This document shows positions 3,661 through 55,631 of a stretch of 64,000 bases of DNA, one piece after another (position 1 is the first letter of the stretch; the number at the start of each line of letters is the position of its first letter). A model generated the notes under the pieces. The model was given only the letters and a program-made list of their open reading frames with translations. It ran no database searches and had not been told where the DNA came from. The DNA lies in assembly GCA_938002255.1 (NCBI GenBank), contig CALLAL010000016.1, forward strand, positions 75,038-139,037, given 5' to 3'. The position numbers were made by a program, and so were the translations under genes. The DNA comes from an uncultured bacterium. Its GTDB lineage: Bacteria > Desulfobacterota > BSN033 > UBA1163.

Positions 3661-3742
3661 GTGTTTTACGAGGGATTTAAAAAAGTTTTTGATTTCAATA
3701 AGTTTAAAACTTAATGCCATAAGGAAAGGAGGATTGGTTGTC

Positions 3743-38866: not shown

Positions 38867-39845
38867 GAAAGCCTTTCGAGGAAAGAACGTGCTGATTACA
38901 GGAGGGCTGGGTTTCATCGGATCGAATCTTTCCATCCGGCTGGTTGATGTGGGGGCCAATGTCCTATTGGTGGATAGCCTGATCCCCGAGTATGGAGGCC
39001 ATCTGTTCAATATTGAGAATATTAAAAACAAAGTTCGAGTGAATATCTCGGACGTCAGGGATGAGCATAGCATGCGATATCTGGTCCAAGGTCAGGATTA
39101 CCTGTTTAACTTGGCAGGCCAAACAAGCCACCTCGATTCGATGGAAGATCCCTACACGGACCTCGAAATCAATGCCAAAGCGCAACTTTATATCCTCGAA
39201 GCCTGTCGCCGATATAATCCCAGCATCAAGTTGGTTTTTGCGAGTACCCGTCAAATTTATGGGAAACCAGAATACCTCCCCGTTGATGAAAAACATCCTT
39301 TGAGACCGGTTGATGTTAATGGGATCAATAAGATGGCAGGTGAGCGATACCATTTACTCTATAACGATGTTTATGGTATCCGATCATGTGTCCTTCGTCT
39401 CACAAATACGTATGGTCCCCGAATGAGAGTCAAGGATGCTCGGCAAACCTTTTTAGGGATCTGGATACGACTCCTTGTAGAGGGGAAACCCTTCGAGGTA
39501 TGGGAAGGGGACCAACTTCGCGATTTTACATATGTGGATGATGTGGTTGATGCGCTCATGATGACAGCGACGAGTCCGGACGCAGACGGCCAAATTTTTA
39601 ATCTCGGTGGGGAAGCCTCTATCCGTTTGAAGGATCTGGCGGCGTTGCTGGTTGAACTTAACGGAGGAGGCCACTATCAGGTCCGCTCCTTTCCACCGGA
39701 AAGGAAGCGAATTGACATTGGCGATTACTATGCGGACTTTGGTCAGATTCGGTCCGTTTTAGGCTGGCATCCGAAGGTTTCTTTACGCCAGGGGTTAGCC
39801 CAGACCCTCTCATTTTATCGTGAACATCTGGAGCACTATCAATGA
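38853..39845 (+). CDS. NAD-dependent sugar-nucleotide epimerase/dehydratase (extended SDR)
   Basis: [14 protein letters not shown] Rossmann motif. The position of the SDR YxxxK Tyr appears to be Asn (NGINK). Confidence 0.7.
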
Positions 39846-40978
39846 TGACTCCTGCATCCCGATTCATCGTTCACAATGACCTCAGAGCAGGATATCTTTC
39901 GGTTAAAGAGGAGATCGATTCAGCAATCTTACGCGTTTTGGATAGCGGGTGGTACATCCTTGGAAAAGAAGTCCGTGCCTTTGAAGAAGAGTTTGCGGCT
40001 TATATTGGCGTTCGATTTGGAATTGGTGTTGGGAGCGGTACCGAAGCGTTGCATTTGGCAATGAGGGCCTGTGGCATTATTCCCGGCGATGAAGTCATCA
40101 CGGTTTCTCATACAGCCGTGGCGACCGTAGCTGCCATTGAACTGTGCGGTGCTAAACCGGTTTTGGTGGACATTTTACCCGATACCTTTTTGATAGATCC
40201 GGAAAAAATTGAACGGGCGATTACCCCCCAAACCAAAGCGATTATTCCAGTCCACCTTTATGGGCAAGTTGCGGATATGGAGGCGGTCCGGTCTATTGCA
40301 AAACGGTATGGGTTGCGCTTCATTGAAGATTGTGCCCAGTCTCACGGTGCTCTTTTGAAGGGGCGGCGGAGTGGTTCCTGGGGGGATCTTGGAGCCTTCA
40401 GCTTTTATCCAACGAAAAACTTGGGAGCCATGGGAGATGGTGGAATGGTGGTGACCGATGACCCGGAACTCGCAGAGAGGGTTAGAGGCTTACGCCAATA
40501 TGGATGGCACCAGCGTTATGTGAGTGAATTTCCGGGAGTTAATTCCAGGCTGGATGAATTGCAGGCGGCGATTTTGAGGGTCAAATTAAGATATTTGGAT
40601 CGATGGAATGAATTGAGAAGGGAGAAAGCCAATCGCTACACCACCCTGTTGGAGGGGCTAGGCATATATTGCCCCATTGCCAAAGAACCTCAGCAACACG
40701 TTTATCATCTTTATGTGATCCGAGTGAAGCACAGGGATCGTCTTAAAACCTTTTTAAAAGAAAGGGGTATCGAAACACTCATTCACTACCCCATTCCGAT
40801 ACACCTCCAGAAAGGTTATCAACATTTAGGCTATCGAATTGGGAGTCTTCCTGTCACTGAATCGTGTTCAGATGAGATTCTTTCTCTTCCCCTGTATCCA
40901 GAGATATCTGAATCAGATATTGAAGAAGTAGCGACACAGATCGCCCATTTTATGAAGGCCAGCCACGGGTCTATTTGA
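39842..40978 (+). CDS. DegT/DnrJ/EryC1/StrS family PLP-dependent sugar aminotransferase
   Basis: [23 protein letters not shown] and [15 protein letters not shown] (PLP-lysine region). Confidence 0.8.
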
Positions 40979-40998
40979 TGTAGGCAACACCTTTCAAC

Positions 40999-42168
40999 AT
41001 GAAGATTCTTCATCTTTTCAGTGATTGGAAATGGACGGGTCCCTCTGAGCCCATCGTTAACTTATGCAAGGAATTGGAAAGAAGGGGGCATGAGGTAATG
41101 CTTGCCTATCGAAAGCCCCCATTTTTTGTTGAAGACAGTTTGGATAAAAGGGTTAAAGAGAGAGGAATTCATACGACCGACCAGTTTCATCTGAACCGAC
41201 CCCTGAGATTGTACTCTCTTTCTTCGCTTCGAGACAATCTCTCTGATATTTTCAGTCTGACGAATTACCTCCGGAAAGAAAAGGTGGATATCCTCAATGT
41301 CCACCAATCCCACGACCATATTCTGGGTGGGATTGCCGCCAGAAGGTCCGGCACCCCTGTCGTCGTCATTAGGACCGATCATAAACGGGATTCGATCAGT
41401 CCCCATCCGGGGAATCGTCTCCTGATGAGTAGGCTAACCGATGGCATGATTACCTTCTCGGAAAGAGCCAGAGGCGAGGATTCAAAGCATTTTGGGTTTC
41501 CCCTTGAACGAGTCTGCAAGGTGAATCCAGCTTTAGATCTTGACCGATATCGTCCCGAAAGGACTTTTAAAGATATGAGGTCGTTGTTTGGAATTGAGAA
41601 GGATGAAATTGTGATCGGAATGATTGCACGATTTCAGAAATACCGTAGGACTGAGGTGTTCCTTGAGGCCGTTAAAGGGGTGGTTCAAGAATTTTCGAAA
41701 ATTAGAGTGCTTTTGGTGGGTCGGTCAAGTCAGATGGAGGAGAGCGTTGTTAAACCGATGAAGAGGCTCGGCATAGAGCCGTGGGTGGTTCTTGGAGGAT
41801 ATCAGACAGAAAACTATCTCGATACGTTAGCCTGTATGGATATCTTTGTCTTCTTGATGCCTGGCTCTGATGGGACGGCAAGGGCTTTAAGAGAGGCCAT
41901 GGCTATGGGAAAACCTTCGATCGTTGCCAATCGGGGGATCTTGCCCGAGTTGGTGGAAGATGGGGTTTCAGGCTTTGTGGTTAAGGATTCACCTGAGGCG
42001 TTGACCCATGCGACCCTTCAACTTCTCCGAGACCTGGCGTTAAGAAAAAAGATGGGAGCGGCAGCTTACGAAAAGGCCCATCGGGAATTCCGACTCGATA
42101 AACAGGCTGAAGACATTGAAAGATTCTATCAGGAGATGATGAGTTTAGGGAAGTGGAGAGGAAAATAA
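40999..42168 (+). CDS. GT4 family glycosyltransferase
   Basis: GT-B fold. C-terminal EAMAMGKPSIVANRGILPELVEDGVSGF. Confidence 0.7.
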   Translation: MKILHLFSDWKWTGPSEPIVNLCKELERRGHEVMLAYRKPPFFVEDSLDKRVKERGIHTTDQFHLNRPLRLYSLSSLRDNLSDIFSLTNYLRKEKVDILNVHQSHDHILGGIAARRSGTPVVVIRTDHKRDSISPHPGNRLLMSRLTDGMITFSERARGEDSKHFGFPLERVCKVNPALDLDRYRPERTFKDMRSLFGIEKDEIVIGMIARFQKYRRTEVFLEAVKGVVQEFSKIRVLLVGRSSQMEESVVKPMKRLGIEPWVVLGGYQTENYLDTLACMDIFVFLMPGSDGTARALREAMAMGKPSIVANRGILPELVEDGVSGFVVKDSPEALTHATLQLLRDLALRKKMGAAAYEKAHREFRLDKQAEDIERFYQEMMSLGKWRGK

Positions 42169-43328
42169 GGTTTGCCACAGCCATTCATGACTTCTCCAGA
42201 AGCAAAGGAGGGGCAGAAAGATATCTCGTAAACCTCTGTACCCGGATGGCTCAAGAGGGCCATGAAATCCATGTCTATGCAGAGAAATGGGAGGAAGAAT
42301 TTCCCGGGATTTTTCTCCACAGGGTGAAGCCCTTTCCATTTCCGAAAAGCCTTCGCCTTCTCTCTTTTGCCGTCAAGGCAACAAAAGAGATGAAAAATGG
42401 AAATTATGATGTCACGCTCGGAGTTGGAAATACTCTGGAGGCAGACGTGCTTCAACCCCATGGAGGAGTTCACTGGGCTTGGTTCTGGAGAAGTTTGAAA
42501 GCTTATGATTGTCCCCTCTTATGGTTGACCAAATTCTTAGGCAGAGTGTTAAGCCCGAAGCAATGGGTTCAGGGGTATATTGAACGAACACCGTATAGAA
42601 AAGGGACATATAAAAAGATCATTGCCATTTCAGATATGGTTAAAGAAGATTTAATCAAATGGTATCATATCCCAGAAGACCGAATTGTTGTGGTCTATAA
42701 TGGCGTGGATGTCGAGCGCTTTAACCCCAACAATCAACACTATCGAGACGACATTAGAAAAAGACATGGCATTGGAGAAGAATTCGTCATCCTATTTGTT
42801 TCGAATAATTTCAGAATGAAAGGGTTGCGCCATTTGATGAAAGCTTTAGCCGAGGTAAAAAAAGAGGGCTGTCCCCCATTTAAGCTCCTGATTCTGGGTA
42901 GGGACCAGCAGACTCCTTATCTCCGGATGGCCGAAAAGATTGGAATTGCAGAAGAGATCATCTTTGCCGGTTCAACCCCTGAACCTGAGAAATATTATGG
43001 AGCGGCCGATCTACTGGCCCATCCGACTTTTTATGATGCCTGTTCGCTTACGGTGTTAGAAGCCCTTGCAAGTGGATTGCCCGTGATCACGACCACCTTT
43101 AATGGGGCAAGCGGGGTGATCCCTCCAAACCATCATGGTTTTATTCTCTCTGACCCCGCAGATAGCCGTTCTCTTGCAGACCATCTTCTTTTTCTTTTAA
43201 AAAAGAAAAATTGGCAGAAACGAACCGACGCTGAGGAATTCGGCCTTAACTATTCAGATAAAAAAAATTGGGAAGCAATGGCGTTTATTTTTCAGAAAGC
43301 TATTCGTGGAGAGGAAAACGCCCAATGA
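42153..43328 (+). CDS. GT4 family glycosyltransferase
   Basis: N-terminal GGAERY motif and C-terminal EALASGLPVITT. Probably starts with GTG at 42153. Confidence 0.7.
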   Translation: MERKIRFATAIHDFSRSKGGAERYLVNLCTRMAQEGHEIHVYAEKWEEEFPGIFLHRVKPFPFPKSLRLLSFAVKATKEMKNGNYDVTLGVGNTLEADVLQPHGGVHWAWFWRSLKAYDCPLLWLTKFLGRVLSPKQWVQGYIERTPYRKGTYKKIIAISDMVKEDLIKWYHIPEDRIVVVYNGVDVERFNPNNQHYRDDIRKRHGIGEEFVILFVSNNFRMKGLRHLMKALAEVKKEGCPPFKLLILGRDQQTPYLRMAEKIGIAEEIIFAGSTPEPEKYYGAADLLAHPTFYDACSLTVLEALASGLPVITTTFNGASGVIPPNHHGFILSDPADSRSLADHLLFLLKKKNWQKRTDAEEFGLNYSDKKNWEAMAFIFQKAIRGEENAQ

Positions 43329-43918
43329 AGAAAAAACGATTCTGGTATCCCCTGATCAATCTTAAAAATCGTTTTTTATTTGGATCCTACGGGAAGGATG
43401 TTTACATTGAGCCTGGGGTGGTGATCAACCGGCCAAGGTTTGTTCATGTGGGGAATCATGTGCGGATCAAACGAAATACCAGTATCAATCTCCACCCCCA
43501 AGACAAACACTCAATCCAGGGCCTTCTTTTTATCGGGGACCACGTGATCATCTCAGAGGGATGCTTTATCAGTGCCTGCAACCATCTCGTCATCGAAGAA
43601 AATGTAGGGATCTCACCCCATGTCATGATCATCGATAATTCCAGAAAACCGGGGGATATCCGTCGTCCCAGCAAGGAACAGGAGGTTCAGGTTGGTTATG
43701 TTCATATAGGAGCGGATTCCTGGATTGCTTATGGGGCTTGTATCCTTCCCAATGTGACCATCGGCAAACATTGTATTATTGGGGCCCTCTCAGTGGTCAC
43801 TCGAGATATTCCAGACTATTCGGTTGCCATGGGAGCACCCGCGAAAGTGATCAAACGATTCGATTTTGAGAAACAACTATGGGTAAAGGTGAAGGATGAG
43901 GAAAATCTCGTGGAGTGA
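43325..43918 (+). CDS. Hexapeptide-repeat (LbH) sugar O-acetyltransferase
   Basis: Start at ATG 43325 overlapping the upstream stop. Hexapeptide repeats IGADSWIAYGACILPNVTIGKHCIIGALSVV. Confidence 0.65.
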   Translation: MKKKRFWYPLINLKNRFLFGSYGKDVYIEPGVVINRPRFVHVGNHVRIKRNTSINLHPQDKHSIQGLLFIGDHVIISEGCFISACNHLVIEENVGISPHVMIIDNSRKPGDIRRPSKEQEVQVGYVHIGADSWIAYGACILPNVTIGKHCIIGALSVVTRDIPDYSVAMGAPAKVIKRFDFEKQLWVKVKDEENLVE

Positions 43919-44537
43919 TCTTTTTAAGCATCGGAATGAGATCCATCATCGTTATCCTGATATCTGGCACCTTAAGATTCTCAGGAAGCGATTTCCTTTG
44001 ATGCTTCAAAACCTCAGGGATGGAGCAAGAGTGCTTGACGTCGGGGCTTCCAACCGAGATCTCGAAGGCCGTTTAAAGAAATATTATCCGAATCTTATCT
44101 ATCGAAGCATGGACATCGATCAAACACAATTTCACGATTATTATCGGTTTGAGGACATTCAAGAAAGATACGACGTCGTGTTTCTTTTTGAAGTGATCGA
44201 GCACCTCCCTTTAGAAGAAGGACTGGAGATGGTGGAGAAAATCTATGCACTTCTTAAAGAGGGAGGGAGGCTCCTTTTGACGACTCCCAACATTTTTAAT
44301 CCTGGTCGGTACTGGCGGGATGCGACACACAGACAGGCTTATTGTTATGATGAGTTAGGTGGAATCCTGATGGCCCAAGGATTTTCAATCAAGGAGATGT
44401 ATCGAACCTACAGCGATGCTTTCCACCGCTATCTGTTCCGAGTCTATGTGATGGCTCCTCTCCACCGTTATCTGGGAATTGATTTTGCGAAATCGATTTT
44501 AATTGTGGCCATCAAGGGGGAAGAGAAGCAACGATGA
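43896..44537 (+). CDS. Class I SAM-dependent methyltransferase
   Basis: VLDVGASNRDLEG (motif I), VVFLFEVIEHLP, LKEGGRLLLTTPN. Confidence 0.65.
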   Translation: MRKISWSDLFKHRNEIHHRYPDIWHLKILRKRFPLMLQNLRDGARVLDVGASNRDLEGRLKKYYPNLIYRSMDIDQTQFHDYYRFEDIQERYDVVFLFEVIEHLPLEEGLEMVEKIYALLKEGGRLLLTTPNIFNPGRYWRDATHRQAYCYDELGGILMAQGFSIKEMYRTYSDAFHRYLFRVYVMAPLHRYLGIDFAKSILIVAIKGEEKQR

Positions 44538-45523
44538 ACCTCATTTTTCTCACCCATTCTAGTGACCAAGGACACCGATTCCGGGTCGAGCAATATTTTC
44601 CCCTTCTCCGACACCATCAGGTGAACCCCGTATGGCAGCCCCTTCCTCCCTCCATAAAGAATCGGATATCGATTTATCAAAAGCTTCGGGAGTTTGATAT
44701 CGTCTGTATTCAGAGGCGATTACTCTCTCCTCTGGAATTTTTGTGGGTCCGAAAGAAATCGAAAAAGATTCTCTTTGATCTCGACGATGCCATCATGTAT
44801 CGTTCCCCCAGTTCCCCTTATCCCCATTCTTTTTCAAGATGGATCAAATTTAAATGGATGGTGAGGGGAAGTGACGCCGTGATTGCAGGAAATCATTTTC
44901 TTCGCGAAGAAGTCTTCAAAGCCGATCCTCATAAAAGGGTTTTTATTATTCCAACTCCAGTTGACCTCAAGGCTTATCCTCTTAAAAAAGAGGTTACCCC
45001 CTCTGCCGAAATGAACATCGGCTGGATTGGAACCAAAGGAAATTTAAGATATCTTCAAGCTCTGGAACCTGTTTTCAAAATCCTTGCCCCTCGATTCCCA
45101 AACGTAAAATTGAAAGTGGTCAGTAATGGTCTATTCGAATCCCAGTTTATTCCGACGGTGAACAAGCCCTGGGTTTTGGAGGAAGAAAACCAGGATTTAA
45201 TTTCTTTTGACATCGGTCTGATGCCTCTGGAGGATCATCTGTGGTCAAGGGGAAAATGTGGGTTGAAAATTATCCAATATCTAAGCGTGGGCCTTCCGGT
45301 GGTCTGTTCCCCTGTGGGAATGAATCGGGATATCATCAAGCATGGCGTCAATGGATTCTGGGCGGGTACCCCAACGGAATGGATGAAATATATCCAAACG
45401 CTTTTGCAGGATACTGGCTTAAGAAAAGAGATGGGACTTCGGGGGATTGAAACCGTTCAAGAAGGGTACAGTCTCGAGGTAAACTTCCATAAACTTCTGC
45501 AGGTTCTGGAGTCACTGGCTTAG
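44534..45523 (+). CDS. Glycosyltransferase (GT-B, GT4-like), paralog A
   Basis: C-terminal GLKIIQYLSVGLPVVCSPVGMNRDIIKHGVNGF. About 35-40% identical to the next gene. Confidence 0.6.
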   Translation: MNLIFLTHSSDQGHRFRVEQYFPLLRHHQVNPVWQPLPPSIKNRISIYQKLREFDIVCIQRRLLSPLEFLWVRKKSKKILFDLDDAIMYRSPSSPYPHSFSRWIKFKWMVRGSDAVIAGNHFLREEVFKADPHKRVFIIPTPVDLKAYPLKKEVTPSAEMNIGWIGTKGNLRYLQALEPVFKILAPRFPNVKLKVVSNGLFESQFIPTVNKPWVLEEENQDLISFDIGLMPLEDHLWSRGKCGLKIIQYLSVGLPVVCSPVGMNRDIIKHGVNGFWAGTPTEWMKYIQTLLQDTGLRKEMGLRGIETVQEGYSLEVNFHKLLQVLESLA

Positions 45524-45537
45524 AGGGTGTTGGTTCT

Positions 45538-46551
45538 ATGAAAGTCCTTTTTTTCATTCAGGGATTTTCCGTTGCGGCCAGCCGTTATCGAGTGCTTCAA
45601 TATCTACCCTATCTTAAATCCCGAGGCGTGGAGCCCACGGTTCAGGTTTATCCAAAAACCCTCAAGGACCATCTTCAATGGTTCAAATTGCTTCCTCAAT
45701 ATGATATTGTTTTTTTACAGAGAAAGCGGTTCAATCAACCCAGACTCGGACTTTTGCGCAGAAGGGCAAAAAAAATCATTTATGACTTCGACGATGCCGT
45801 GATGTATCGAAACTCCAAATCTGGCCAACCCATCTCTTCCTCACGCAGGAGGCGATTTGTTCAAATGATCCGGGCCTCCGATTTTGTCATTGCCGGGAAT
45901 GAATTTTTAAAGTATGAAGTTCAAGCCCTTCATCCTCGTGTGGAAGTCATTCCAACACCTATTGATATCAGCCGGTATCGGCCTAAAGCCTACCTCATCC
46001 AACCGGAACGAGTCACCTTAGGGTGGATCGGGGATCATGGATCCATTCACTATCTTGAAAAAATGAAGCCAGTCTTTAATCGGCTTGGCAAGAAATATCC
46101 CCACGTCGATCTCAAGATCGTCTGCGATATCTTTTTCGATTGCGATTCCATCAGGGTGATTAAAAAGGATTGGAAAGCAGAGGAAGAAGTCTTAGACCTT
46201 CAGAGTTTTGATATTGGGGTGATGCCTCTGGTCGATGATCCTTGGTCCTGGGGAAAATGTGGATTAAAAATTATCCAATATCAGGGGGTTGGTGTTCCGG
46301 TGGTTTGCACACCGGTCGGAATCAATAGGGATTTGGTGGAGGATGGGGTAAATGGATTTTATGCAATGACTCCGGAAGAGTGGGAGGAAAAACTTTCCTT
46401 GTTGATTGAAGATGCCTCCCTGAGGGAAAGAATGGGTCAGGAAGGGCGAAAGCGGGTCTTAAAGGGCTATACCCTTCAAGCCTGTGCCCCTAAATTGTTT
46501 TCTATTCTTCAGCGAGTTTCTGAAATGTCCGAAATGGAGAGTGTTCCTTGA
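45538..46551 (+). CDS. Glycosyltransferase (GT-B, GT4-like), paralog B
   Basis: Collinear with 44534..45523 (YRVLQYLPYL versus FRVEQYFPLL, GLKIIQYQGVGVPVVCTPVGINRDLVEDGVNGF). Confidence 0.6.
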   Translation: MKVLFFIQGFSVAASRYRVLQYLPYLKSRGVEPTVQVYPKTLKDHLQWFKLLPQYDIVFLQRKRFNQPRLGLLRRRAKKIIYDFDDAVMYRNSKSGQPISSSRRRRFVQMIRASDFVIAGNEFLKYEVQALHPRVEVIPTPIDISRYRPKAYLIQPERVTLGWIGDHGSIHYLEKMKPVFNRLGKKYPHVDLKIVCDIFFDCDSIRVIKKDWKAEEEVLDLQSFDIGVMPLVDDPWSWGKCGLKIIQYQGVGVPVVCTPVGINRDLVEDGVNGFYAMTPEEWEEKLSLLIEDASLRERMGQEGRKRVLKGYTLQACAPKLFSILQRVSEMSEMESVP

Positions 46552-47171
46552 GAGAAGCCATCGTCAATTATGTGAAATGGGCTATTGAGCGTTTTCCCTT
46601 TGAGGAACCCATTCTGGATACCTGTGCTGGATGGGAACCGAATTATTACCAACCCCTTTTTCCAGGGAAGCGTTATCTTAAACAAGACATGCAGGATTTT
46701 GACCCACCCTGTATTGATATCCTTTGTGATATCACCGATATGGAACCGATTCCTGATGAAAGCATTGGGTTGGTGCTTAATCTTGAATCCCTGGAGCATA
46801 TTGCTCATCCACAGAAAGCCATCGATGAGATCCACCGTGTCCTCAAGCCCGAGGGGCTTTTGATCTTAACCACCGTCATGCATTTTAAAATCCATCACGC
46901 TCCAAAGGATTACTGGCGGTTTACACCGGAAGGGATTGAACTATTGTTGGGTAAATTCAAAATCTTAGATTGCACGCTGGAAGGGGACCTTAAGAGGCCT
47001 AAAGGCATCTGGACGACTGCTCGTAAAACTTCGGAGAAAGAGGAGTGGGGAAAACTGCCTCCCTTAAGAATAGCGAAGAGTGACGATCGATTGTGGGCCA
47101 AACTGAAACGGAAAGTCACAAAAGGGGCTTCTTTCCTTCAAGAGAGGAGTTGGGTTAGGGGAAATGGCTAA
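46548..47171 (+). CDS. Class I SAM-dependent methyltransferase
   Basis: Methyltransf_11-like region LVLNLESLEHIAHPQKAIDEIHRVLKPEGLLILTT. Confidence 0.6.
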   Translation: MREAIVNYVKWAIERFPFEEPILDTCAGWEPNYYQPLFPGKRYLKQDMQDFDPPCIDILCDITDMEPIPDESIGLVLNLESLEHIAHPQKAIDEIHRVLKPEGLLILTTVMHFKIHHAPKDYWRFTPEGIELLLGKFKILDCTLEGDLKRPKGIWTTARKTSEKEEWGKLPPLRIAKSDDRLWAKLKRKVTKGASFLQERSWVRGNG

Positions 47172-48798
47172 GTCACCCTACCAGAAAATCACCATGGGAG
47201 AGATGAAGGGCTGGATCAGGGAGGAACTGGTTCATCTCCTTCCTCCCATCTTTTTCAAAGATCCCATAGAATTCGCAAGAGAAGATGGAGGGAAATGCGT
47301 CAGGGAATCGAAATGGCGTTGGGCAGGGTTTTTAGATTTACCAGAAGGGAAAAGGGTTTTCTTAAAGAGGGATCTTACCAAAGACTGGATGGAGTCATTG
47401 AAATATTTGGTTTTTCCGTCGAAAGGGAGAAAAGAATGGTTTATTGCCTATCAATCAGGGAAACGGCATCTCAATGTTCCAACCCCTCTGGGTTGGTTGG
47501 AGCGGAGCCAACAGGGCTTTGTGAAAGAGAGTTATTATCTTGCAGAAGCTATTTCATCCAGGGGATCATTGGCAGAGACAATGGATCTTTTGAGGAATGA
47601 GAAGATTGTAGCAGAATTGGTTCGGATGCTCATCCGTATGCACAATTCGGGGTTATTTCATCAAGACCTTCACGCAGGTAATTTCTTGTGGGATGGAGAA
47701 AGTTTGTATCTCATTGATTTGCACAGGGCGAAGTTCGTCCGTTCTCTCGCGTTGAACCAAAGATTATGGAACCTTGCCCAACTCTTTCACTCCTTAAGGT
47801 TCGCCTGGGATACAAAGGAACATGAAAAGTTTCTCGATCAATATTTTGAAGGGGATCCCATTGATTCGAGAAAAAAGAAACTCTACCTCCAAAAAATCTA
47901 TAGCTGGACGGATCGGCTACAGAAAAAGCAGTGGAGGAGTAGGACCAAACGCTGTTTAAAGGAAAGCACAGAATTTGCGATTCAAAAAGAGGATGGGGGA
48001 ATGTTTTATTACCGGCGGGATTTTCCCTTAGATCATCTGAAAAGAGTTTTAGAGAGGCACCTTGCCTTCGTCCAGCAAACCCCATCCTTGTTGGTCAAGC
48101 AGAGCTCGGCAATCAAGGTTTCCGTTCTTCAGGATGGAAAGGACAGGATTTGTGTCAAGCAATTTTGTTATCCTCACTGGCGGGATCGCATCAGAAATGG
48201 ATTTCGTCGCTCCAAAGGTCTTCAAGCGTGGATCGGAGGCCACGGATTAAAGGTGAGAGGGGTATCCTCCCTCAAGCTGTTTGCCCTGGTGGAGCAGAAA
48301 CGATGGTTTGGGAAGACAGAAAGTGTTTTAATCATGGAAGCTCCTGAGGCTGCAGAGGAAATGGATCGTTTTTTATGTAAAGGGCTCGATGGGGTTGAGG
48401 AGAAAAGAAGCTATATTGAAGCCTTCGCCTTATGGCTTGCTCAACTCCATCAACGAAACATCTACCACCTGGATATGAAAACATGCAATGTCCTCGTTTC
48501 AAAGAGGAACAACGGCTGGAATTTTCAATTGCTTGACCTGGAAGATGTCCGGTTCGATACAAAAGTGAATGAAAGGAGATTGTTTAAGAATCTCCTTCAG
48601 CTCAATACCTCTGTTCCTCGTTTCATCCCCCTGAGAGATCGAACGAGATTTTTAAAGGCCTATTTAAAACATCATCCCATTCTCAGAAAGGAAAAGAGAT
48701 TTCTCTCCCGGCTCATCGAGAAGAGTAGAGAAAGAGGAATTGTCTATGTTTCCCCCTGTGGAGTTGTGGAGGAGAAATTCAATGGAGGGAAAGGATGA
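47164..48798 (+). CDS. Tandem-domain lipopolysaccharide kinase (Kdo/WaaP/RIO-like) family protein
   Basis: Two kinase-like catalytic loops: LFHQDLHAGNFLWDGESLYLIDLHRAKF and IYHLDMKTCNVLVSKRNNGWNFQLLDLEDVRF. Both retain the HxD...N and downstream D motifs. Confidence 0.6.
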   Translation: MAKSPYQKITMGEMKGWIREELVHLLPPIFFKDPIEFAREDGGKCVRESKWRWAGFLDLPEGKRVFLKRDLTKDWMESLKYLVFPSKGRKEWFIAYQSGKRHLNVPTPLGWLERSQQGFVKESYYLAEAISSRGSLAETMDLLRNEKIVAELVRMLIRMHNSGLFHQDLHAGNFLWDGESLYLIDLHRAKFVRSLALNQRLWNLAQLFHSLRFAWDTKEHEKFLDQYFEGDPIDSRKKKLYLQKIYSWTDRLQKKQWRSRTKRCLKESTEFAIQKEDGGMFYYRRDFPLDHLKRVLERHLAFVQQTPSLLVKQSSAIKVSVLQDGKDRICVKQFCYPHWRDRIRNGFRRSKGLQAWIGGHGLKVRGVSSLKLFALVEQKRWFGKTESVLIMEAPEAAEEMDRFLCKGLDGVEEKRSYIEAFALWLAQLHQRNIYHLDMKTCNVLVSKRNNGWNFQLLDLEDVRFDTKVNERRLFKNLLQLNTSVPRFIPLRDRTRFLKAYLKHHPILRKEKRFLSRLIEKSRERGIVYVSPCGVVEEKFNGGKG

Positions 48799-49532
48799 CC
48801 TCTTCCCAACCGTGGTCCTATGGAATGGTTGCGCTTTCAAGGAATGAGATTCACGGGAAAGTGATCGAGTTGGCTGCCCGGCTTCCTCGGGGGAAAGCCC
48901 TGGATGTCCCGACCGGAAGCGGGGTCCTCGGAGATCGCCTCCGTATGATTGGATTTGAGGTCTCATGCTGTGACATCGATTCGTCTTATTTCTCCGCACC
49001 AGACCTCACTCTTGATATCGGAGATCTCAACCAGTCCCTTCCCTATCCGACCGGTTCTTTTGATTTGATTACCTGTGTTGAGGGGATTGAGCATCTGGAA
49101 AACCCTTTTCATGCCATTCGGGAGTTTTCTCGAATTCTCAAACCCGGAGGGAAATTAATCTTGACGCTTCCCAATTATCTCAACCTGGAGAGAAGGTTGA
49201 GATTTCTTGTTACCGGACTTTTTTCTAAAATCCCTTCTCCCAAGAAACTTGGGAAAGACCGGTTTGACCATCTCTACATGCTTCACCTTATCCCTCTGAC
49301 CTACCCGATCCTGAAGGTGATGATGGAGCATTCGGATTTCAAGATTCTTCAGGTCGAGAAAGATAAAGAGAAGAAACGGATGAAATGGCTCCTTCCCCTT
49401 GCATGGATGATTCGAGGGTACTGCTTCTTCTGGTCGAAAGAAAAAAAGGAAGACTACCATTTGAAGGATACGCTTTCAGATTCCCTCATCATGGGCGGCA
49501 ATACCCTTATTGTTGTGAGCCAGAGGGAATGA
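48795..49532 (+). CDS. Class I SAM-dependent methyltransferase (paralog 1)
   Basis: ALDVPTGSGVLG, ITCVEGIEHLENPFHAIREFSRILKPGGKLILTLPN. Confidence 0.65.
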   Translation: MTSSQPWSYGMVALSRNEIHGKVIELAARLPRGKALDVPTGSGVLGDRLRMIGFEVSCCDIDSSYFSAPDLTLDIGDLNQSLPYPTGSFDLITCVEGIEHLENPFHAIREFSRILKPGGKLILTLPNYLNLERRLRFLVTGLFSKIPSPKKLGKDRFDHLYMLHLIPLTYPILKVMMEHSDFKILQVEKDKEKKRMKWLLPLAWMIRGYCFFWSKEKKEDYHLKDTLSDSLIMGGNTLIVVSQRE

Positions 49533-50659
49533 TGCGCATCGGTTACTATATTCGAAATTATGTGTTGAAAGGCCAGGATGGAAAACCAGCCATGTCTGGG
49601 GGAGTCAAGGTGATTTCCCAGCATGTTAAAATGCTTAACCAGGCAGGCATAGAAGCATTGCTATGCACAAGAAAGGTTCAAACGGATATCCCTCTATCCG
49701 AGTTACACATGTACGATCACCCTGTTGTTTTAAGGGAGAATGAGGATTTGCCTGACTGTGATCTGTATGTTGGATCCATTTTTAGTGATGTTAAAATGCT
49801 TTTTCAAAGGGGCAGAGGGAAAATCATTCATCTCTGTCAGGGGTATGAACCCATTGACTTTACCGAAAGGTTCGTTGAAGGGAGGGTCTCCGAGAAATAT
49901 TTAAGAAAGGGTCTCATGTCTTTATGGCAGTGGGCAGACCGATGGAAATTTAGAAAGAGGGTTAGGGAGATTGAGTCGATTTATGCTTTACCGACCGTGA
50001 AAGTGGCGGTATCGAAACATCTCGTCACATTGATTGAACGATATTATCAACAGCCCTGTTTTCTTATTCCTAACGGCATTGATCCGAATATCTTCTTTCC
50101 AAACCAGGATAGAGTTTGGGGTAAAGATGGGAAGATTAGCATTCTATCCGTTGGGCCTCTCCAGGTTGGCTTTAAAGGCATACCGGATACCCTGCAAGCA
50201 ATCAAAATTCTGAGAGAGAAAGGGGTTCCGATCCGATTCATCAGGGTCTCTCCTCATCCACCTTCCCCGACCGAAGAGTTGGGGAAGGTGGTTGATGAAT
50301 ATTATATGAATTTGAAAGAGCAAGAAATGGGGGAATTGTATCGGAATGTGGACATTTTTATTTCTTCCTCTCTCGAAGGAGAAGGGTTTGGTTTACCCGC
50401 GATGGAGGCCCTTGCCTCCGGCGTTCCTTCCATTCTTACAGAAATATCAAGTTATTTAAATTTTGACGAAAAAAAGGATTTTGGTTTTTTCGTTCCAGTT
50501 CACCGGCCAGACCTGATTGCCGAAGGAGTCATTCGGATCATAGAGAGTTCAACATTCAGGGAGGGGATTCGGCAGAGAGGAATGAAGGTTGCCGAGAATT
50601 ACACGATAGATCACACCCGGGAGAAGCTCCTCTCCTTTATCAGGAGCTTCATGCCATGA
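49529..50659 (+). CDS. GT4 family glycosyltransferase
   Basis: Start ATG 49529 overlapping upstream stop. EGEGFGLPAMEALASGVPSI is the GT4 EX7E region. Confidence 0.7.
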   Translation: MMRIGYYIRNYVLKGQDGKPAMSGGVKVISQHVKMLNQAGIEALLCTRKVQTDIPLSELHMYDHPVVLRENEDLPDCDLYVGSIFSDVKMLFQRGRGKIIHLCQGYEPIDFTERFVEGRVSEKYLRKGLMSLWQWADRWKFRKRVREIESIYALPTVKVAVSKHLVTLIERYYQQPCFLIPNGIDPNIFFPNQDRVWGKDGKISILSVGPLQVGFKGIPDTLQAIKILREKGVPIRFIRVSPHPPSPTEELGKVVDEYYMNLKEQEMGELYRNVDIFISSSLEGEGFGLPAMEALASGVPSILTEISSYLNFDEKKDFGFFVPVHRPDLIAEGVIRIIESSTFREGIRQRGMKVAENYTIDHTREKLLSFIRSFMP

Positions 50660-51378
50660 CAGACCTCTTGCGATTTGCGACGGACGACGTTCACTCCAAG
50701 GTGTTGTTAGCTTTGGAACATATGCCGAGAGGTTGGCTTCTCGATGCCCCTGCAGGGCAGGGAGCTCTTTCCCGTCAGCTTGAAGAAATGGGGTTTAAAG
50801 CTTTTTTAGCAGATATCGAGAAGGATAATCTTGTTTATCGAAATGGTCGAAGCCTTCAAATCGATTTAAACCAACCTCTCCCTTTCAAGAACCAATCCTT
50901 TGACTATATTATCTGTGTCGAGGGCATTGAACATTTAGAAAATCCCCATCACTTAATTCATGAATTTTCAAGAATTTTAAAAAAGAATGGTTATCTCCTT
51001 CTTTCTACACCCAATGTCATGACCCTTAAATCACGGTGGAGGTTTCTCTTTTATAGTTATCTTGATTACTTCAGATACTTCGGGCCTGTTCCCGCGAAGG
51101 AGCGACATCAAATTGATGTCTATGACCACCAGCACATCAACCCTCTTTTTTATGGAGAAATCAAATGGATATTGGAGAAAGAAGGATTGAGAATTAAGGA
51201 TCTTAAAACGAATCGATTCGTTCGTACGAAGGGAATCCTGTATCCTCTTCTCAAATGGCTGGTGAAATATAAGACGAAAGAAAAATATCCAGAGGACCCG
51301 GCTTATGTTTCGGATATTTTACTGGAGGGAGAAATTCTAATCTTATTAGCCGAGAAAGTGAAACGTTTTCCAACATGA
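50656..51378 (+). CDS. Class I SAM-dependent methyltransferase (paralog 2)
   Basis: LLDAPAGQGAL, IICVEGIEHLENPHHLIHEFSRILKKNGYLLLSTPN. Clear paralog of 48795..49532. Confidence 0.65.
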   Translation: MTDLLRFATDDVHSKVLLALEHMPRGWLLDAPAGQGALSRQLEEMGFKAFLADIEKDNLVYRNGRSLQIDLNQPLPFKNQSFDYIICVEGIEHLENPHHLIHEFSRILKKNGYLLLSTPNVMTLKSRWRFLFYSYLDYFRYFGPVPAKERHQIDVYDHQHINPLFYGEIKWILEKEGLRIKDLKTNRFVRTKGILYPLLKWLVKYKTKEKYPEDPAYVSDILLEGEILILLAEKVKRFPT

Positions 51379-52355
51379 ACGACGTATCCATTGCCATTGT
51401 CAATTGGAATACAAAAAATTACTTGATTCAATGCCTGAAGTCCCTTGAACAGACCGTGAAGCATTTGAAGATGGAAATTATTGTGGTCGACAATGGATCA
51501 GCAGATGGGAGTGTGGAGTGGATCAGAGAGGAATTTACCAAAGCCATCCTTATTATGAACCCGGTAAATCTTGGATTTGCTAAAGCCAATAATCAGGCGG
51601 TGACGCTATCGAAGGGGAGATATATTCTTCTCCTCAACCCAGACACGGAGGTAAAGGAAGGAGCGATTGAAAACTTGGTGGCTTTTATGGAGGGCCATCA
51701 GGAGGTAGGTGTGGCAGGAGCCCAGCTCCTTCATTCAGATGGTTCCAAACAGAATTCGATTGCCAGTTTTCCATCCCTGGCCACCGAATTGCTGAACAAG
51801 GGTTTCCTTCGCTGGCTTTTCCCAAGCCGGTATCCGGGTAAAGAGAACACCTATTCTGGACCTATTGAGGTTGACTCGGTGATTGGCGCCTGTATGATGG
51901 TCAGGAGAGAGGCCATTGACCAAGTGGGGGGGTTGGACGAAGACTATTTTCTGTTTCTCGAAGAAACGGATTGGTGTTATCGGATGAAGCAAGAGGGCTG
52001 GAAGATTTATCACGTTCCCCAGGCGGAGGTGATCCATTTCCAGGGAAAGAGTGTTGAAAAAGATAAAAAGAGGGCGAAGGTCGAGTACTATCGCTCCCGT
52101 TATCTTTTTTTTAAAAAGCATCGAGGAACCTGGCAAGGGGTGGTTTTGCTTGCCGGGGTATTGATCAAGTTGGGGATGGAGTTGTTTTCCATGGCTCTGG
52201 CTTGTCTCCTAACATGCTTTTCTATAAAAAGTTGGAGAAAGAAATTTTTTACCTATACCTATTTGCTTTGGTGGCATCTTAAAGGATGTCCTGAAGGAAT
52301 GGGGCTCAACCCACAAGCAAAGAGCTTGGAGCATGGGGCCAAGAGGGTTTGTTGA
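51375..52355 (+). CDS. GT2 family glycosyltransferase
   Basis: VSIAIVNWNTKNYLIQCL...VVDNGSADGS, DxD region LEETDWCY. Confidence 0.75.
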   Translation: MNDVSIAIVNWNTKNYLIQCLKSLEQTVKHLKMEIIVVDNGSADGSVEWIREEFTKAILIMNPVNLGFAKANNQAVTLSKGRYILLLNPDTEVKEGAIENLVAFMEGHQEVGVAGAQLLHSDGSKQNSIASFPSLATELLNKGFLRWLFPSRYPGKENTYSGPIEVDSVIGACMMVRREAIDQVGGLDEDYFLFLEETDWCYRMKQEGWKIYHVPQAEVIHFQGKSVEKDKKRAKVEYYRSRYLFFKKHRGTWQGVVLLAGVLIKLGMELFSMALACLLTCFSIKSWRKKFFTYTYLLWWHLKGCPEGMGLNPQAKSLEHGAKRVC

Positions 52356-52422: not shown

Positions 52423-53424
52423 ATGATTGGCATTGCGGTGGTAGGCGCCGGGGCTTGGGGAAAGAATCACATACGGGTATTTTCCGAGATTCCAAAAGTC
52501 CGATTAAAGTATATCTGTGACGCGGATTCTTCTAAATTATTGGCGATTCAGAAATCCTATCCCCAATCGATTCCTGTGGAAGAAATTGGTGCCATCCTCC
52601 AGGACCCCGAAGTGAGTGGTGTGGTGATTGCTTCTTCTGCAGTGACGCATTTCCCTTTGGCCAGAGATGCATTGAGCGCAGGCAAAGATGTTTTGGTAGA
52701 AAAGCCGATGGCCCTCACGGTCACAGATGCCAAAACATTATTAGAGATGGCTGAAGATAGAAAATGTGTTCTGATGGTTGGGCATCTTTTAATTTATCAC
52801 CCAGTGTTTGGACGATTGAAGGAGATGGTGGGGTCAGGCGAGTTGGGAAAAGTTCATTATATCTATACCCAACGTGTTAATCTGGGCATTATCCGTCAGG
52901 ATGAAAATGCCCTCTGGTCTTTTGCTCCCCATGATCTGTCCGTCATCCTGAAACTTTTTGGGGAAACGCCTGTCGTGGTTTCTGCCAACGGAGAGAGCTA
53001 TATTCAAAAAGACATTGAAGATGTGGTTTTCCTTAGCCTTCACTTTGCAGATAGGAAAATGGCCAATATCCATTTGAGTTGGCTTGATCCCCACAAGATC
53101 AGGAAGATCACCATCGTCGGATCAAAGAAAATGGTTGTCTTCGATGATATGGAAACCTCCGAGAAGTTGAAAGTCTATGATAAAGGGGTTAGAAGTCCCT
53201 CTTATGACACCTATGGCGAGTATCTTAGCTTACGGTTTGGAGATATTACGATTCCGAATATCAAGATGGTGGAACCCCTTCGTGCTGAAGCCGAACATTT
53301 TATTCACTGCATCGAAACGAGGGAGAAGCCAAAAACAGATGGAAGGGATGGCCTGGAGGTCGTCAAGATTCTTGTGGCCGCTCAAGAATCTTTAAAACAG
53401 AAGGGGGTTCCCATTAGTCTTTAG
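52423..53424 (+). CDS. Gfo/Idh/MocA family sugar-nucleotide oxidoreductase (WbpB-like)
   Basis: IGIAVVGAGAWGKNHIRVF Rossmann motif. Gfo/Idh/MocA C-terminal domain. Confidence 0.8.
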   Translation: MIGIAVVGAGAWGKNHIRVFSEIPKVRLKYICDADSSKLLAIQKSYPQSIPVEEIGAILQDPEVSGVVIASSAVTHFPLARDALSAGKDVLVEKPMALTVTDAKTLLEMAEDRKCVLMVGHLLIYHPVFGRLKEMVGSGELGKVHYIYTQRVNLGIIRQDENALWSFAPHDLSVILKLFGETPVVVSANGESYIQKDIEDVVFLSLHFADRKMANIHLSWLDPHKIRKITIVGSKKMVVFDDMETSEKLKVYDKGVRSPSYDTYGEYLSLRFGDITIPNIKMVEPLRAEAEHFIHCIETREKPKTDGRDGLEVVKILVAAQESLKQKGVPISL

Positions 53425-53435
53425 GGGAAAGAAAT

Positions 53436-54008
53436 ATGGAGAAAAATTATTTTGTTCATCCTACGGCTGTCATCGATGAGCCTTCTGATATTGGAGAAGG
53501 ATCTCAAATCTGGCACTTCTCCCATGTCATGTCAGGGGCAAAAATTGGGAAGAATTGTATCATTGGCCAGAATGTGTTTGTTGCTTCTGGTGCTCTTCTT
53601 GGAGATAACATTAAAATCCAGAATAATGTATCCATTTTTAAGGGGGTCGTGCTTGAAGACGATGTCTTCTGCGGTCCCTCTATGGTTTTTACCAATGTCT
53701 TTAACCCGCGAAGTTTCATTTCGAGGAAGAAAGAGTTTCGGCAGACCCTCGTCAAAAAGGGGGCAACGATTGGAGCTAATGCAACGATCATTTGTGGGAA
53801 TGTCATAGGAGCCTATGCCTTTATCGGAGCCGGTTCTGTCGTCACTCGAGATGTTCCGGATTATGCCCTCGTTTACGGAAATCCGGGGAAGGTCAAAGGC
53901 TGGGTATGCCAGTGTGCAGTGGAGATCGTTTTTCGATCGGGAAAAACCATCTGCAAAGCCTGTGGGAAACGCTACCAAAAGGATAGAACAGGAGTGACGT
54001 TGATATAA
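53436..54008 (+). CDS. Hexapeptide-repeat N-acetyltransferase (WbpD/PglD-like)
   Basis: LbH repeats throughout (IGKNCIIGQNVFVASGALLGDNIKIQNNVSI...). Adjacent to Gfo/Idh/MocA oxidoreductase and 2-epimerase. Confidence 0.7.
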   Translation: MEKNYFVHPTAVIDEPSDIGEGSQIWHFSHVMSGAKIGKNCIIGQNVFVASGALLGDNIKIQNNVSIFKGVVLEDDVFCGPSMVFTNVFNPRSFISRKKEFRQTLVKKGATIGANATIICGNVIGAYAFIGAGSVVTRDVPDYALVYGNPGKVKGWVCQCAVEIVFRSGKTICKACGKRYQKDRTGVTLI

Positions 54009-54011
54009 GCT

Positions 54012-55124
54012 ATGAAGATTGTGACAGTGGTCGGGGCGAGACCCCAATTTATAAAAGCGGCAGCAATCACTCGGGCTGTTCAAACCAACTACCAACAGAT
54101 TCAAGAAATCTTAGTCCATACGGGCCAACACTACGATTACCTCATGGACCGGATCTTCTTCGAAGAGCTGGAGATTCCTAAACCGAATTATCATCTTGGA
54201 GTTGGATCGGGTTCCCATGGAAAGCAGACGGGGGTTATGCTTGAAAGGATTGAGGCTATCCTTCAGAAGGAGAAGCCCGATAGGGTTCTTGTTTTTGGGG
54301 ATACCAATTCGACCCTGGCGGGGGCCTTGGCGGCCGGAAAGATGCATATTCCGATCGCCCATGTGGAGGCAGGGTTAAGAAGTTATAACCGCAGGATGCC
54401 AGAAGAGATCAACCGTCTCCTCACAGACCATCTTTCAACCTATCTCTTCTGTCCCACGGATCAAGCGGTTCAAAATTTATCCAAAGAGGGAATCCGGAAC
54501 GGAAAAGGAAAGATCGTCAAAAACGTTGGCGATGTCATGTATGATTCTATCCTTTACTATTCTACAATAGCCGAGAAAAAATCAGCGATTTTGGAAGAGT
54601 TAGGTCTCCTGATCCCTGATTCCTCACACCTCACGGATTACTATCTGGCGACTCTCCACCGTGCTGAAAACACCGATGATCCCCAAAAACTGAGATCTAT
54701 CTTAAAAGCACTCAATGTGATTGGAGAGGAAGTGCCTGTGATCCTTCCTCTTCACCCAAGAACGAAAAAGATGATCGACTTTCACCGTCTTTCTGGAGAG
54801 ACTCAACATATTAAAATGATTGATCCGATCTCTTACCTCAATATGCTTGTGCTGGAAAAGAATGCCAGAGCGGTGTTGACAGACTCCGGAGGCGTCCAGA
54901 AAGAGGCTTACTGGTTCAGAGTTCCCTGTATCACTTTGCGGGAGGAGACCGAATGGGTGGAAACCGTTCGATGGGGTTGGAATGTGCTGGCGGGGACAGA
55001 AACCGAAAGGATTATTGAGGGGGTCAATCAAGCAGTGAAAAAACAACATGCATCGAAAACAACCCATCCCTTTGGCAACGGTAAAGCCAGTTGGAAGATT
55101 CTCAATTTATTAACAAAACATTAA
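54012..55124 (+). CDS. wecB: UDP-N-acetylglucosamine 2-epimerase (non-hydrolysing)
   Basis: MKIVTVVGARPQFIKAAAI, HVEAGLRS, and the DSGGVQKEA motif. Confidence 0.85.
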   Translation: MKIVTVVGARPQFIKAAAITRAVQTNYQQIQEILVHTGQHYDYLMDRIFFEELEIPKPNYHLGVGSGSHGKQTGVMLERIEAILQKEKPDRVLVFGDTNSTLAGALAAGKMHIPIAHVEAGLRSYNRRMPEEINRLLTDHLSTYLFCPTDQAVQNLSKEGIRNGKGKIVKNVGDVMYDSILYYSTIAEKKSAILEELGLLIPDSSHLTDYYLATLHRAENTDDPQKLRSILKALNVIGEEVPVILPLHPRTKKMIDFHRLSGETQHIKMIDPISYLNMLVLEKNARAVLTDSGGVQKEAYWFRVPCITLREETEWVETVRWGWNVLAGTETERIIEGVNQAVKKQHASKTTHPFGNGKASWKILNLLTKH

Positions 55125-55178: not shown

Positions 55179-55631
55179 ATGCATCAGAGGTTAAGGGAAG
55201 AGGTCATTAACATGTTGGCAAACTTTTTTTCAGAGCATCATAAAACATACGGGATTGAAATGGTTTTTCTATACGGTTCTTGGGCGGCGGGGGTTCCTAA
55301 AGAGGAGTCAGATGTGGATATTGCCATTGTGTTTAAAAAAGAGTGTCCTACAGAGGAAGAGCTGTTCCAGAGTCTAAATCATTTAACACTCTCCTTAACC
55401 AAAGAGACGGGGTTGGAAGTGAACGCCATCCCAATCCTGCCGGATTTTCCTAAACCGATGCTTTACTACAATGCGATTGTTTCAGGGATACCGATTTTCA
55501 TCAGGGATCTTTTTCGATATGCAGGGATTAAGAATGAAGCCATCCATCAAATGGAAGATTTTAGCATTTTCGGCACAAAATGGCAGCTTCAGTGTGCCCG
55601 AAGGACCCTGGAGGGGTTAAAACATGGCTGA
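55179..55631 (+). CDS. MNT-type nucleotidyltransferase antitoxin
   Basis: Minimal NTase motif FLYGSWAAGVPKEESDVDIAIVF (GS-x(n)-DxD). Confidence 0.7.
   Translation: MHQRLREEVINMLANFFSEHHKTYGIEMVFLYGSWAAGVPKEESDVDIAIVFKKECPTEEELFQSLNHLTLSLTKETGLEVNAIPILPDFPKPMLYYNAIVSGIPIFIRDLFRYAGIKNEAIHQMEDFSIFGTKWQLQCARRTLEGLKHG

Follow-up and report, generated by a model that had tools for sequence, protein, structure and literature searches.

O-methylated sugars in lipopolysaccharide (LPS), and O-antigen gene clusters that contain methyltransferases, are well known. The waa core operons bring together, in a single operon, the family 9 glycosyltransferase (GT9) genes for HepI and HepII, GT4 genes and a WaaP-family kinase, and to our knowledge the classical waa operons are devoid of S-adenosylmethionine (SAM)-dependent methyltransferases. 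Here we analyze a 64,000-nucleotide stretch of contig CALLAL010000016.1 (positions 75,038 to 139,037; hereafter the window, whose own numbering is used throughout) from an uncultured bacterium of the Desulfobacterota lineage UBA1163. It carries five predicted SAM-dependent methyltransferase (MT) genes, MT1 to MT5, in a glycan locus rich in glycosyltransferase (GT) genes, and four of these flank a tandem WaaP-like kinase gene within what appears to be an LPS core operon.

The Mycobacterium smegmatis glycopeptidolipid (GPL) locus is the closest functional precedent for this arrangement. Its order is gtf3-rmlB-rmt2-rmt4-gtf1-atf-rmt3-gtf2-fmt, and rmt2, rmt4, rmt3 and fmt, which lie among gtf1-3 and the acetyltransferase gene atf, each encode a methyltransferase with a proven hydroxyl target on a sugar that a neighbouring GT adds (PMC1885439). 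Similar to the locus described here, several small class I SAM-dependent O-methyltransferases are interleaved with GTs and an acetyltransferase in one cluster. The GPL system differs in its lipopeptide acceptor (rather than lipid A-core), its actinobacterial host and its lack of heptosyltransferases and of a kinase, and the likeness is one of gene arrangement, with no specific sequence relationship demonstrated between the GPL enzymes and MT1-MT5. A second point of comparison is WbdD of Escherichia coli, which in serotype O9a is a kinase-methyltransferase chain terminator and in O8 a methyltransferase only, methylating a sugar hydroxyl directly (PMC3482155). Both WbdD and the present locus combine a class I MT with a kinase of eukaryotic-like/WaaP-like fold, directed (here by prediction) at an LPS glycan on the cytoplasmic face. 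WbdD is nevertheless one fused polypeptide with a coiled-coil ruler, working on polymannan in an ABC-transporter pathway, whereas the MT and kinase genes of the window are separate, lack accompanying Wzm/Wzt genes and stand in a core context. In layout the locus also resembles the enterobacterial and Pseudomonas waa operons (waaC-waaF-waaG-waaP...), where GT9 HepI and HepII genes are likewise followed by GT4 genes and a WaaP-family heptose kinase. Unlike in those operons, the kinase here consists of two WaaP-like domains fused in tandem, and the operon runs on into amino-sugar and O-unit genes.

The methyltransferase block spans 43896-52355 and consists of nine back-to-back open reading frames (ORFs) on the + strand, in the middle of a long + strand run from ~35.8 kb to at least 63.6 kb. 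MT1 (43896-44537; Pfam Methyltransf_23, 45.8 bits) is followed by two GT4-like glycosyltransferases that match Glycos_transf_1 / Glyco_trans_1_4, GTa (44534-45523; GT-B) and GTb (45538-46551), and by the short MT2 (46548-47171; Methyltransf_11, 45.7 bits), whose first 4 nt are also the last 4 of GTb. The two-domain WaaP/Kdo-family LPS kinase (47164-48798; 544 aa; Pfam Kdo, 89.2 bits in two stretches) precedes MT3 (48795-49532), the GT4-family enzyme GT4r (49529-50659; Glyco_trans_1_4 / Glycos_transf_1), MT4 (50656-51378; Methyltransf_23, 61.6 bits) and the GT2-family enzyme GT2y (51375-52355; Glycos_transf_2, 101.7 bits). The start of GT4r is an in-frame ATG at 49529 inside an ORF of 49385-50659, and this ATG overlaps the MT3 stop. 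MT5 (62861-63553, + strand; Methyltransf_11, 65.2 bits) is distal, 59 nt past an Alg13-like gene. The gene order and domain labels of the original prediction are sound for 43896-52355 and for MT5, as every ORF is intact and Pfam agrees with every label, including that of MT3 as a class I SAM-dependent MT. Between 38033 and 52355, most adjoining start and stop codons overlap by 4-23 nt, as in a single translationally coupled operon. A promoter and terminator scan of 34-53.9 kb gave counts at or under the shuffle expectation, so that no internal operon boundaries could be called in that interval, and the GC content of 0.44-0.46 over 42-54 kb equals that of the flanks and gives no signal of horizontal acquisition.

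The block had been described as part of an O-antigen or exopolysaccharide cluster, but the genes that open the operon, together with the kinase inside it, place it in the LPS core. The first two genes are both Glyco_transf_9 members on the + strand: a HepI-like gene (35775-36881; NCBIfam heptsyl_trn_I, 151 bits, under the cut-off of 185) and a HepII gene (36990-38036; heptsyl_trn_II, 235.7 bits against a cut-off of 134.6). The kinase stays under the cut-off of the RfaP model in NCBIfam, while its profile finds WaaP of Pseudomonas aeruginosa (6dfl, E 4e-12) as the best match in the PDB. Both of its halves keep the invariant H.D....N and D.(H/E)D motifs (HQDLHAGN...IDLH and YHxDMKxCN...LDLED). 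With two GT9 heptosyltransferases at its start and a tandem WaaP-like kinase inside, the locus is, judged by its genes, LPS core/outer-core territory joined to nucleotide-sugar and O-unit genes and not a stand-alone O-antigen or exopolysaccharide cluster. No WaaA or WaaL was found among the annotated operon genes, the remainder of the window not having been searched for them, and the operon genes (35.8-63.6 kb) include no Wzm/Wzt ABC transporter; an ortholog of a Wzx-like flippase is present instead. Homologs of the kinase form 716 clusters at E<=1e-5, and the named ones all come from metagenome-assembled genomes (MAGs) of uncultured Thermodesulfobacteriota or Deltaproteobacteria. Hundreds of clusters from uncultured Thermodesulfobacteriota, with identities of at least 50%, share the fused two-kinase-domain architecture.

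The MTs look like real, soluble and catalytically competent class I SAM-dependent enzymes. All five pass the Pfam gathering-score cut-off for at least one model of the Methyltransf_11/23/25 type, and all five have a motif I (VLDVGAS in MT1, the variant ILDTCAGW in MT2, LDVPTGSG in MT3, LDAPAGQG in MT4 and NCGCGKG in MT5, of which GCGKG is canonical) and, at the end of strand 2, the acidic residue that contacts the ribose of SAM (MDID, KQDMQD, CDID, ADIE and GIDL, in the same order). Alignments of the MT1-MT4 orthogroups show motif I, the acidic residue past strand 2 and the (V/G)IEH and (T/L)(T/L)PN motifs to be invariant or nearly so; the MT1 orthogroup (n=15 including the window copy) conserves L(D/E).GA...MDID...FEVIEHL...LTTPN. 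The concern that the MTs might be pseudo-enzymes lacking SAM-binding residues is not borne out, since the ORFs are intact and the SAM motifs conserved in each orthogroup. No protein of the block is better conserved than MT2, which has the non-canonical motif I ILDTCAGWEPN: the best 120 of its 410 homologous clusters are 74-94% identical to it (plus an identical sequence) and all single-domain, compared with ~50-75% for the adjacent kinase, and this degree of identity points to purifying selection. Two related loci (L035 and L052) each hold a second MT2-like paralog. Orthologs of MT1, MT3 and MT4 are retained between species at 50-88% identity. None of the MTs has a transmembrane segment (maximum Kyte-Doolittle value over 19 residues <=1.17). 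An AlphaFold2 model of MT3 (pLDDT 82.4, pTM 0.82) has the Rossmann MT fold, and Foldseek returned 1207 PDB matches to it at E<=0.001, the top 50 of which all share the class I MT fold and are nearly all methyltransferases. The top six include two sugar O-methyltransferases, RebM and AtmM.

A scan of one genome per species yielded 46 related loci, mostly from Syntrophaceae, Syntrophorhabdus or Thermodesulfobacteriota MAGs, whose ORFs were labelled by blastp against the window proteins; for several of them, precomputed Pfam context was also read. The kinase of the closest locus is 75% identical to that of the window. A backbone order is kept across the loci, GT9-GT9-GT2-epimerase-aminotransferase-GT4-GT4-...-GTb-kinase-...-GT2-GFO-Hexapep-Epimerase_2-PMT_2-Wzx-GNAT-deacetylase-GT2, and the gene order of 38033-43328 recurs in L001, L003, L004, L006-L016 and others. 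By these genes, the operon is a conserved LPS-core operon of what would be uncultured sulfate-reducer-like bacteria. Set on this conserved backbone, the MT content varies across L003-L051. One locus (L001, kinase 73% identical) reproduces the exact window order, including MT1-MT4; five MTs occur in L006, one in L004 and none in a partial stretch of L005. Counting only MTs like those of the window, so that the numbers are lower bounds, we found no MT within 10 kb on each side of the kinase in 11 of the 20 species-level relatives with at least 20 kb of sequence, one in a single relative, two in five, three in two and four in one, compared with four in the window. The MT density, described by the original prediction as unusual, is indeed high relative to the relatives of this locus, but it is precedented by the four MTs among three GTs and an acetyltransferase in the GPL locus of M. 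smegmatis (PMC1885439). A second architecture occurs in many Syntrophaceae-like MAGs (L017-L040, e.g. L018, L025 and L030), where the tandem kinase directly follows an ortholog of the GT4 termed GT4p and has no MT, GTa/GTb or GT2y genes nearby.

The MTs occupy characteristic positions within this framework. MT1 is always directly upstream of a GTa/GTb-type GT, in 13 related loci. MT3-group genes follow either the kinase or an aminotransferase, or, in one case, are fused to a GT4; MT4 precedes the backbone GT2 and has orthologs only in L001, L004 and L006; and a different MT of 320 aa directly follows the kinase in six related loci. MT5 has no ortholog in the related loci, most of whose stretches end short of that position. 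GTb is the conserved GT copy, found upstream of the kinase in nearly all relatives with a GT2y-type locus and 45-88% identical in most loci, and GT2y itself is 61-74% identical in most loci, with or without MT4. GTa orthologs (60-78% identical) were found in L001, L006, L008, L026, L035, L038, L045, L052 and L053. The block is preceded by a hexapeptide-repeat acetyltransferase gene, Hex1 (43268-43918, + strand; Pfam Hexapep, 51.9 bits), which opens the accessory cassette, probably has its true start at an ATG at ~43325 and resembles WbbJ/WcaF in NCBIfam, under cut-off. Hex1 accompanies MT1-GTa-GTb in L001, L006, L026, L045, L052 and L053. The last two are long metagenomic contigs found via MT2, with the order Hex1-MT1-(MT2')-GTa-GTb-MT2 on the same backbone and no kinase. 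As MT2 follows GTb even in these kinase-less loci, and the GTb-MT2 overlap is conserved, MT2 belongs with GTb and not with the kinase.

Natural gene fusions point in the same direction. In L053, the ORF at 1835-3961 specifies a fusion of 708 aa: the N-terminal third resembles MT3/MT4, and the rest has 65% identity to the window GT4 at 42153 (GT4q). An exhaustive HMMER search with MT1 gave 229 representatives at E<=1e-10, which, fragments aside, are ~200-240 aa long, with two exceptions: a 303-aa protein and a 616-aa GT4::MT fusion with an MT1-like C-terminus (P0357). The genomic and physical coupling of MTs to GTs is accordingly seen in the position of MT1, in the GTb-MT2 overlap and in two MT::GT4 fusions. 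Nothing in the data speaks more strongly for joint action of MTs and GTs on one glycan than these fusions and the fixed adjacency. Since functional-looking MTs travel with GTs, a methyl-decorated glycan is a sensible prediction.

The duplications within the block are old. GTa and GTb are tandem paralogs, as had been proposed, with 43.7% identity over 327 aa (blastp, full length, E 2e-97), and MT3 and MT4 are likewise paralogs (36.2% over 207 aa, E 3e-39) that share CVEGIEHLENP(F/H)H. MT1, MT2 and MT5 are distant from the other MTs (blastp E 1e-5 to 1e-9), and MT1 and MT2 give no blastp match to each other. The further proposal of a recent duplication of modules, each an MT plus a GT, does not survive comparison at the DNA level. 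Third-codon-position identity is near saturation (0.39 for GTa/GTb and 0.32 for MT3/MT4), DNA similarity is not detectable between MT3 and MT4, and between GTa and GTb it is confined to a single 153-nt stretch of 76% identity (45205-45357 versus 46206-46358) coding for the best-conserved portion of the C-terminal domain. GTa (60-78% identical) and GTb (70-88%) orthologs coexist in eight loci (L001, L006, L026, L035, L038, L045, L052 and L053), in which the kinase is 49-75% identical or absent and each GT copy resembles its own ortholog far more than its paralog; MT3 and MT4 behave likewise in L001 and L006. Nor can the units themselves be duplicates of one another, as the GT after MT3 is a GT4 (GT-B fold) and that after MT4 an unrelated GT2 (GT-A fold), and MT1 and MT2 lack pairwise similarity. 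Both GTs that adjoin MT3 and MT4 occur in relatives without the MT, with GT4r lacking MT3 in L003, L004 and L053. The pattern indicates ancient duplications: two single genes were each duplicated long ago, and cassettes have been gained and lost. We reject recent duplication as well as gene conversion, with one reservation: the conserved 153-nt stretch may have been preserved by extreme constraint on the catalytic core, or may stem from an old, partial conversion between the two genes.

The combined results suggest a model in which 35.8-63.6 kb would be a single operon for the biosynthesis of LPS core/outer core (plus O-unit) in a Syntrophorhabdus/Syntrophaceae-like member of the Thermodesulfobacteriota. 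Its conserved backbone would comprise the heptosyltransferases, a GT2, an amino-sugar pathway, GT4s, the GTb-type GT, the tandem WaaP-like kinase, another GT2 and a diacetamido-sugar pathway. Accessory decoration genes would be gained and lost on this backbone between species, with the load at its maximum in the present lineage: Hex1-MT1-GTa-GTb-MT2 ahead of the kinase, MT3-GT4r-MT4 after it and before the backbone GT2, and MT5 in a distal position. The GTs would add sugars, the MTs would O-methylate specific hydroxyls while the intermediate is still lipid-linked, on the cytoplasmic side of the inner membrane and prior to export, and Hex1 would add an O-acetyl group, giving a core oligosaccharide with several O-methyl groups and one O-acetyl group. 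We regard it as fairly likely that the soluble MTs each methylate a specific hydroxyl of the sugar added by the neighbouring GT in this way. The gene content, paralogy, SAM-motif conservation, synteny, co-occurrence of MTs with GTs and MT::GT fusions are direct observations, from which we infer a sugar hydroxyl (rather than a phosphate, amine or carboxyl group) as the substrate, the site of action and the pairing of each MT with a GT.

Several observations weigh against this model. No MT attains the cut-off of any curated NCBIfam family, and none is therefore placed in a functionally named one; the best matches are to UbiG and DVU_1556 models, with 23-39 bits against cut-offs of 103-155. NCBIfam likewise named none of the block GTs over cut-off. 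Sequence searches of the PDB with MT1-MT4 and GTb returned weak generic matches only, and neither WbdD nor sugar N-methyltransferases were recovered. The MT matches in the PDB, by sequence and by fold, are generic class I MTs that include N-, C- and small-molecule methyltransferases, and homology consequently does not set the substrate class. RebM and AtmM, the indolocarbazole glucose 4'-O-methyltransferases, rank high among the structures that match the MT3 model (Foldseek E ~1e-12), and AtmM also appears in the sequence search (6uv6, E 1e-4). With 14-18% identity, TM-scores of ~0.5 and many non-sugar MTs scoring equally well, the likeness is nevertheless at the level of the fold and not of family membership. 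The literature on characterised LPS-core O-methyltransferases and on Rhizobium etli O-antigen MTs offered nothing directly usable. Two features of gene order also count against the model. Of 25 related loci that share the downstream backbone, ~14 have an MT directly after the kinase, and these MTs stem from three orthogroups (MT3, MT4 and the 320-aa MT); MT3-group orthologs also directly follow the aminotransferase (L003, L006, L008, L011, L015 and L051). The first could mean phosphate methylation, and the second would fit N-methylation of an amino sugar.

Phosphate methylation would make the locus a split WbdD-like system, in which the kinase phosphorylates a core sugar and the adjoining MT (MT3, possibly MT2 or MT4) methylates the phosphate, the methyl phosphate then blocking extension or masking charge. 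The chemistry is feasible, as WbdD itself pairs a kinase and a class I MT to form a methyl phosphate (PMC3482155). MT2, the kinase gene and MT3 overlap by 8 and 4 nt, and the kinase-less loci L052 and L053 have no MT in the post-kinase slot, both of which speak for such a system. Yet MT2 remains with GTb where the kinase is absent, some MT3-group genes lie far from the kinase, and the fusion partner of an MT3-type domain is a GT4 and not a kinase. A search for kinase-MT fusions found no kinase domain in the best 120 MT2 homologs, the best 120 MT3 homologs or the best 150 MT1 representatives, and WbdD is absent both from the PDB sequence matches at E<=0.01 and from the top 50 Foldseek matches. 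A WbdD-type enzyme unites MT and kinase in one polypeptide with a C-terminal coiled coil; here they are separate genes, and the kinase, whose 544 aa are taken up by two kinase-like halves, has no room for a long coiled coil. The operon also lacks the Wzm/Wzt ABC transporter of the O-polysaccharide pathway in which WbdD works. Taken together, these findings make a phosphate-directed system improbable. More doubtful still is the specific form in which the tandem kinase and whichever MT fills the slot behind it (MT3 in the window, MT4 or the 320-aa MT in relatives) constitute a split, core-directed analogue of WbdD that places methyl phosphate on a core heptose or hexose. If true, this would extend methyl phosphate to the LPS core, where none has been described before, and separate enzymes would install it; combined with other O-methyl and O-acetyl groups, it would give a charge-masked, unusually hydrophobic LPS core in syntrophic anaerobes.

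Some MTs may instead act on groups other than hydroxyls, by N-methylation of an amino sugar (the DegT product) or of phosphoethanolamine, or by forming the methyl ester of a uronic acid, for instance the predicted diacetamido-uronic acid, in which case a nucleotide sugar may be the acceptor rather than the lipid-linked glycan. Besides the MT3-group genes behind aminotransferases, the amino-sugar pathways of the locus (DegT, GFO and Hexapep) are in keeping with this, and the phosphoethanolamine N-methyltransferases 5wp5, 5wp4 and 4ine occur among the Foldseek matches with E values similar to those of the sugar O-methyltransferases. The MT3 of the window does not adjoin an aminotransferase, however; the L053 fusion, which joins an MT to a glycosyltransferase, suggests action at the transfer step; and no sugar N,N-dimethyltransferase is found among the PDB matches by sequence or by Foldseek. 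Both the amine and the carboxyl target, as well as a nucleotide-sugar acceptor, accordingly seem unlikely to us. One might argue from MT2, with its DTCAGW in place of DxGxGxG and a Pfam profile match limited to the C-terminal half, that the MT-like genes have no catalytic role, being remnants or scaffolds, and that the glycan is unmethylated, but the five intact ORFs, the motif conservation in each orthogroup and the retention of MT2 and the other MTs between species make this very improbable.

The remaining genes of the operon, assigned by Pfam, are consistent with an LPS core continuing into O-unit synthesis. On the + strand, the backbone preceding the cassette comprises a GT2 (from 38033), an NAD-dependent epimerase/dehydratase (from 38853), a DegT aminotransferase (39842-40978) and two GT4s (from 40999 and, for GT4q, from 42153, the backbone stretch ending at 43328). 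Downstream of GT2y, the backbone resumes on the same strand with a GFO/IDH/MocA oxidoreductase, a hexapeptide acetyltransferase and a UDP-GlcNAc 2-epimerase (52423-55124), the first resembling UDP-GlcNAc 3-dehydrogenase in NCBIfam, under cut-off. With DegT, the GFO oxidoreductase, hexapeptide N-acetyltransferase and 2-epimerase resemble a WbpB/E/D/I-type pathway, and the block, which is kept in nearly all related loci, looks like a route to a 2,3-diacetamido-2,3-dideoxy sugar. The distal glycan genes (56122-62801, + strand) encode a PMT_2 (GT-C) protein, a Wzx-like ORF (57651), a GNAT protein, a polysaccharide deacetylase/DUF3473, a GT2 and an Alg14/Alg13-like split GT28. The ORF at 57651-58943 (430 aa) has no Pfam match at E<=0.01 and is very hydrophobic (maximum Kyte-Doolittle 2.92); its ortholog in L001, 71% identical, carries PF01943 Polysacc_synt, as in Wzx-like flippases. 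The Alg14-like and Alg13-like genes, corresponding to the N- and C-terminal halves of GT28, occupy 61864-62801 with an overlap of ~60 nt, directly upstream of MT5.

Some further features were noted in passing. The segments 38033-40978, 56122-57654 and 58933-60836 recall the Arn gene set for aminoarabinose modification of lipid A (ArnC/A/B/T/D-like), with a GT2, an epimerase/dehydratase, DegT, the PMT_2 GT-C, the polysaccharide deacetylase/DUF3473 and GNAT as members; the ArnB and ArnA models of NCBIfam match these genes under cut-off. An MNT nucleotidyltransferase/HEPN (HepT-like) toxin-antitoxin pair (55179-56055) sits within the LPS operon, between the UDP-GlcNAc 2-epimerase and PMT_2 genes, and has orthologs at the same place in L015 (60% and 75% identical). 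In L004, a Y1 transposase separates the hexapeptide acetyltransferase from the 2-epimerase and lies just ahead of the latter.

What sets this locus apart is the presence of MTs inside a waa-type core operon, adjoining a fused tandem WaaP-like kinase, and the membership of the MTs in four uncharacterised families common in environmental Thermodesulfobacteriota. As a modular glycan locus it is otherwise ordinary: similar gene mixes are known, and current understanding is not contradicted. O-methylated LPS sugars and MT-rich glycolipid loci have long been known, and no general concept would change. If the model of O-methylation is true, abundant uncultured environmental Thermodesulfobacteriota would make an LPS core with at least four methyl groups, and species would differ in how many they carry, as small MT or MT-GT cassettes are gained and lost. 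Four well-populated MT families would then be available with GT partners indicated by synteny and natural fusions. The MT complement would also provide a genomic read-out of surface-glycan diversity in these bacteria, with a bearing on phage receptors and on cell-cell contact in syntrophy.

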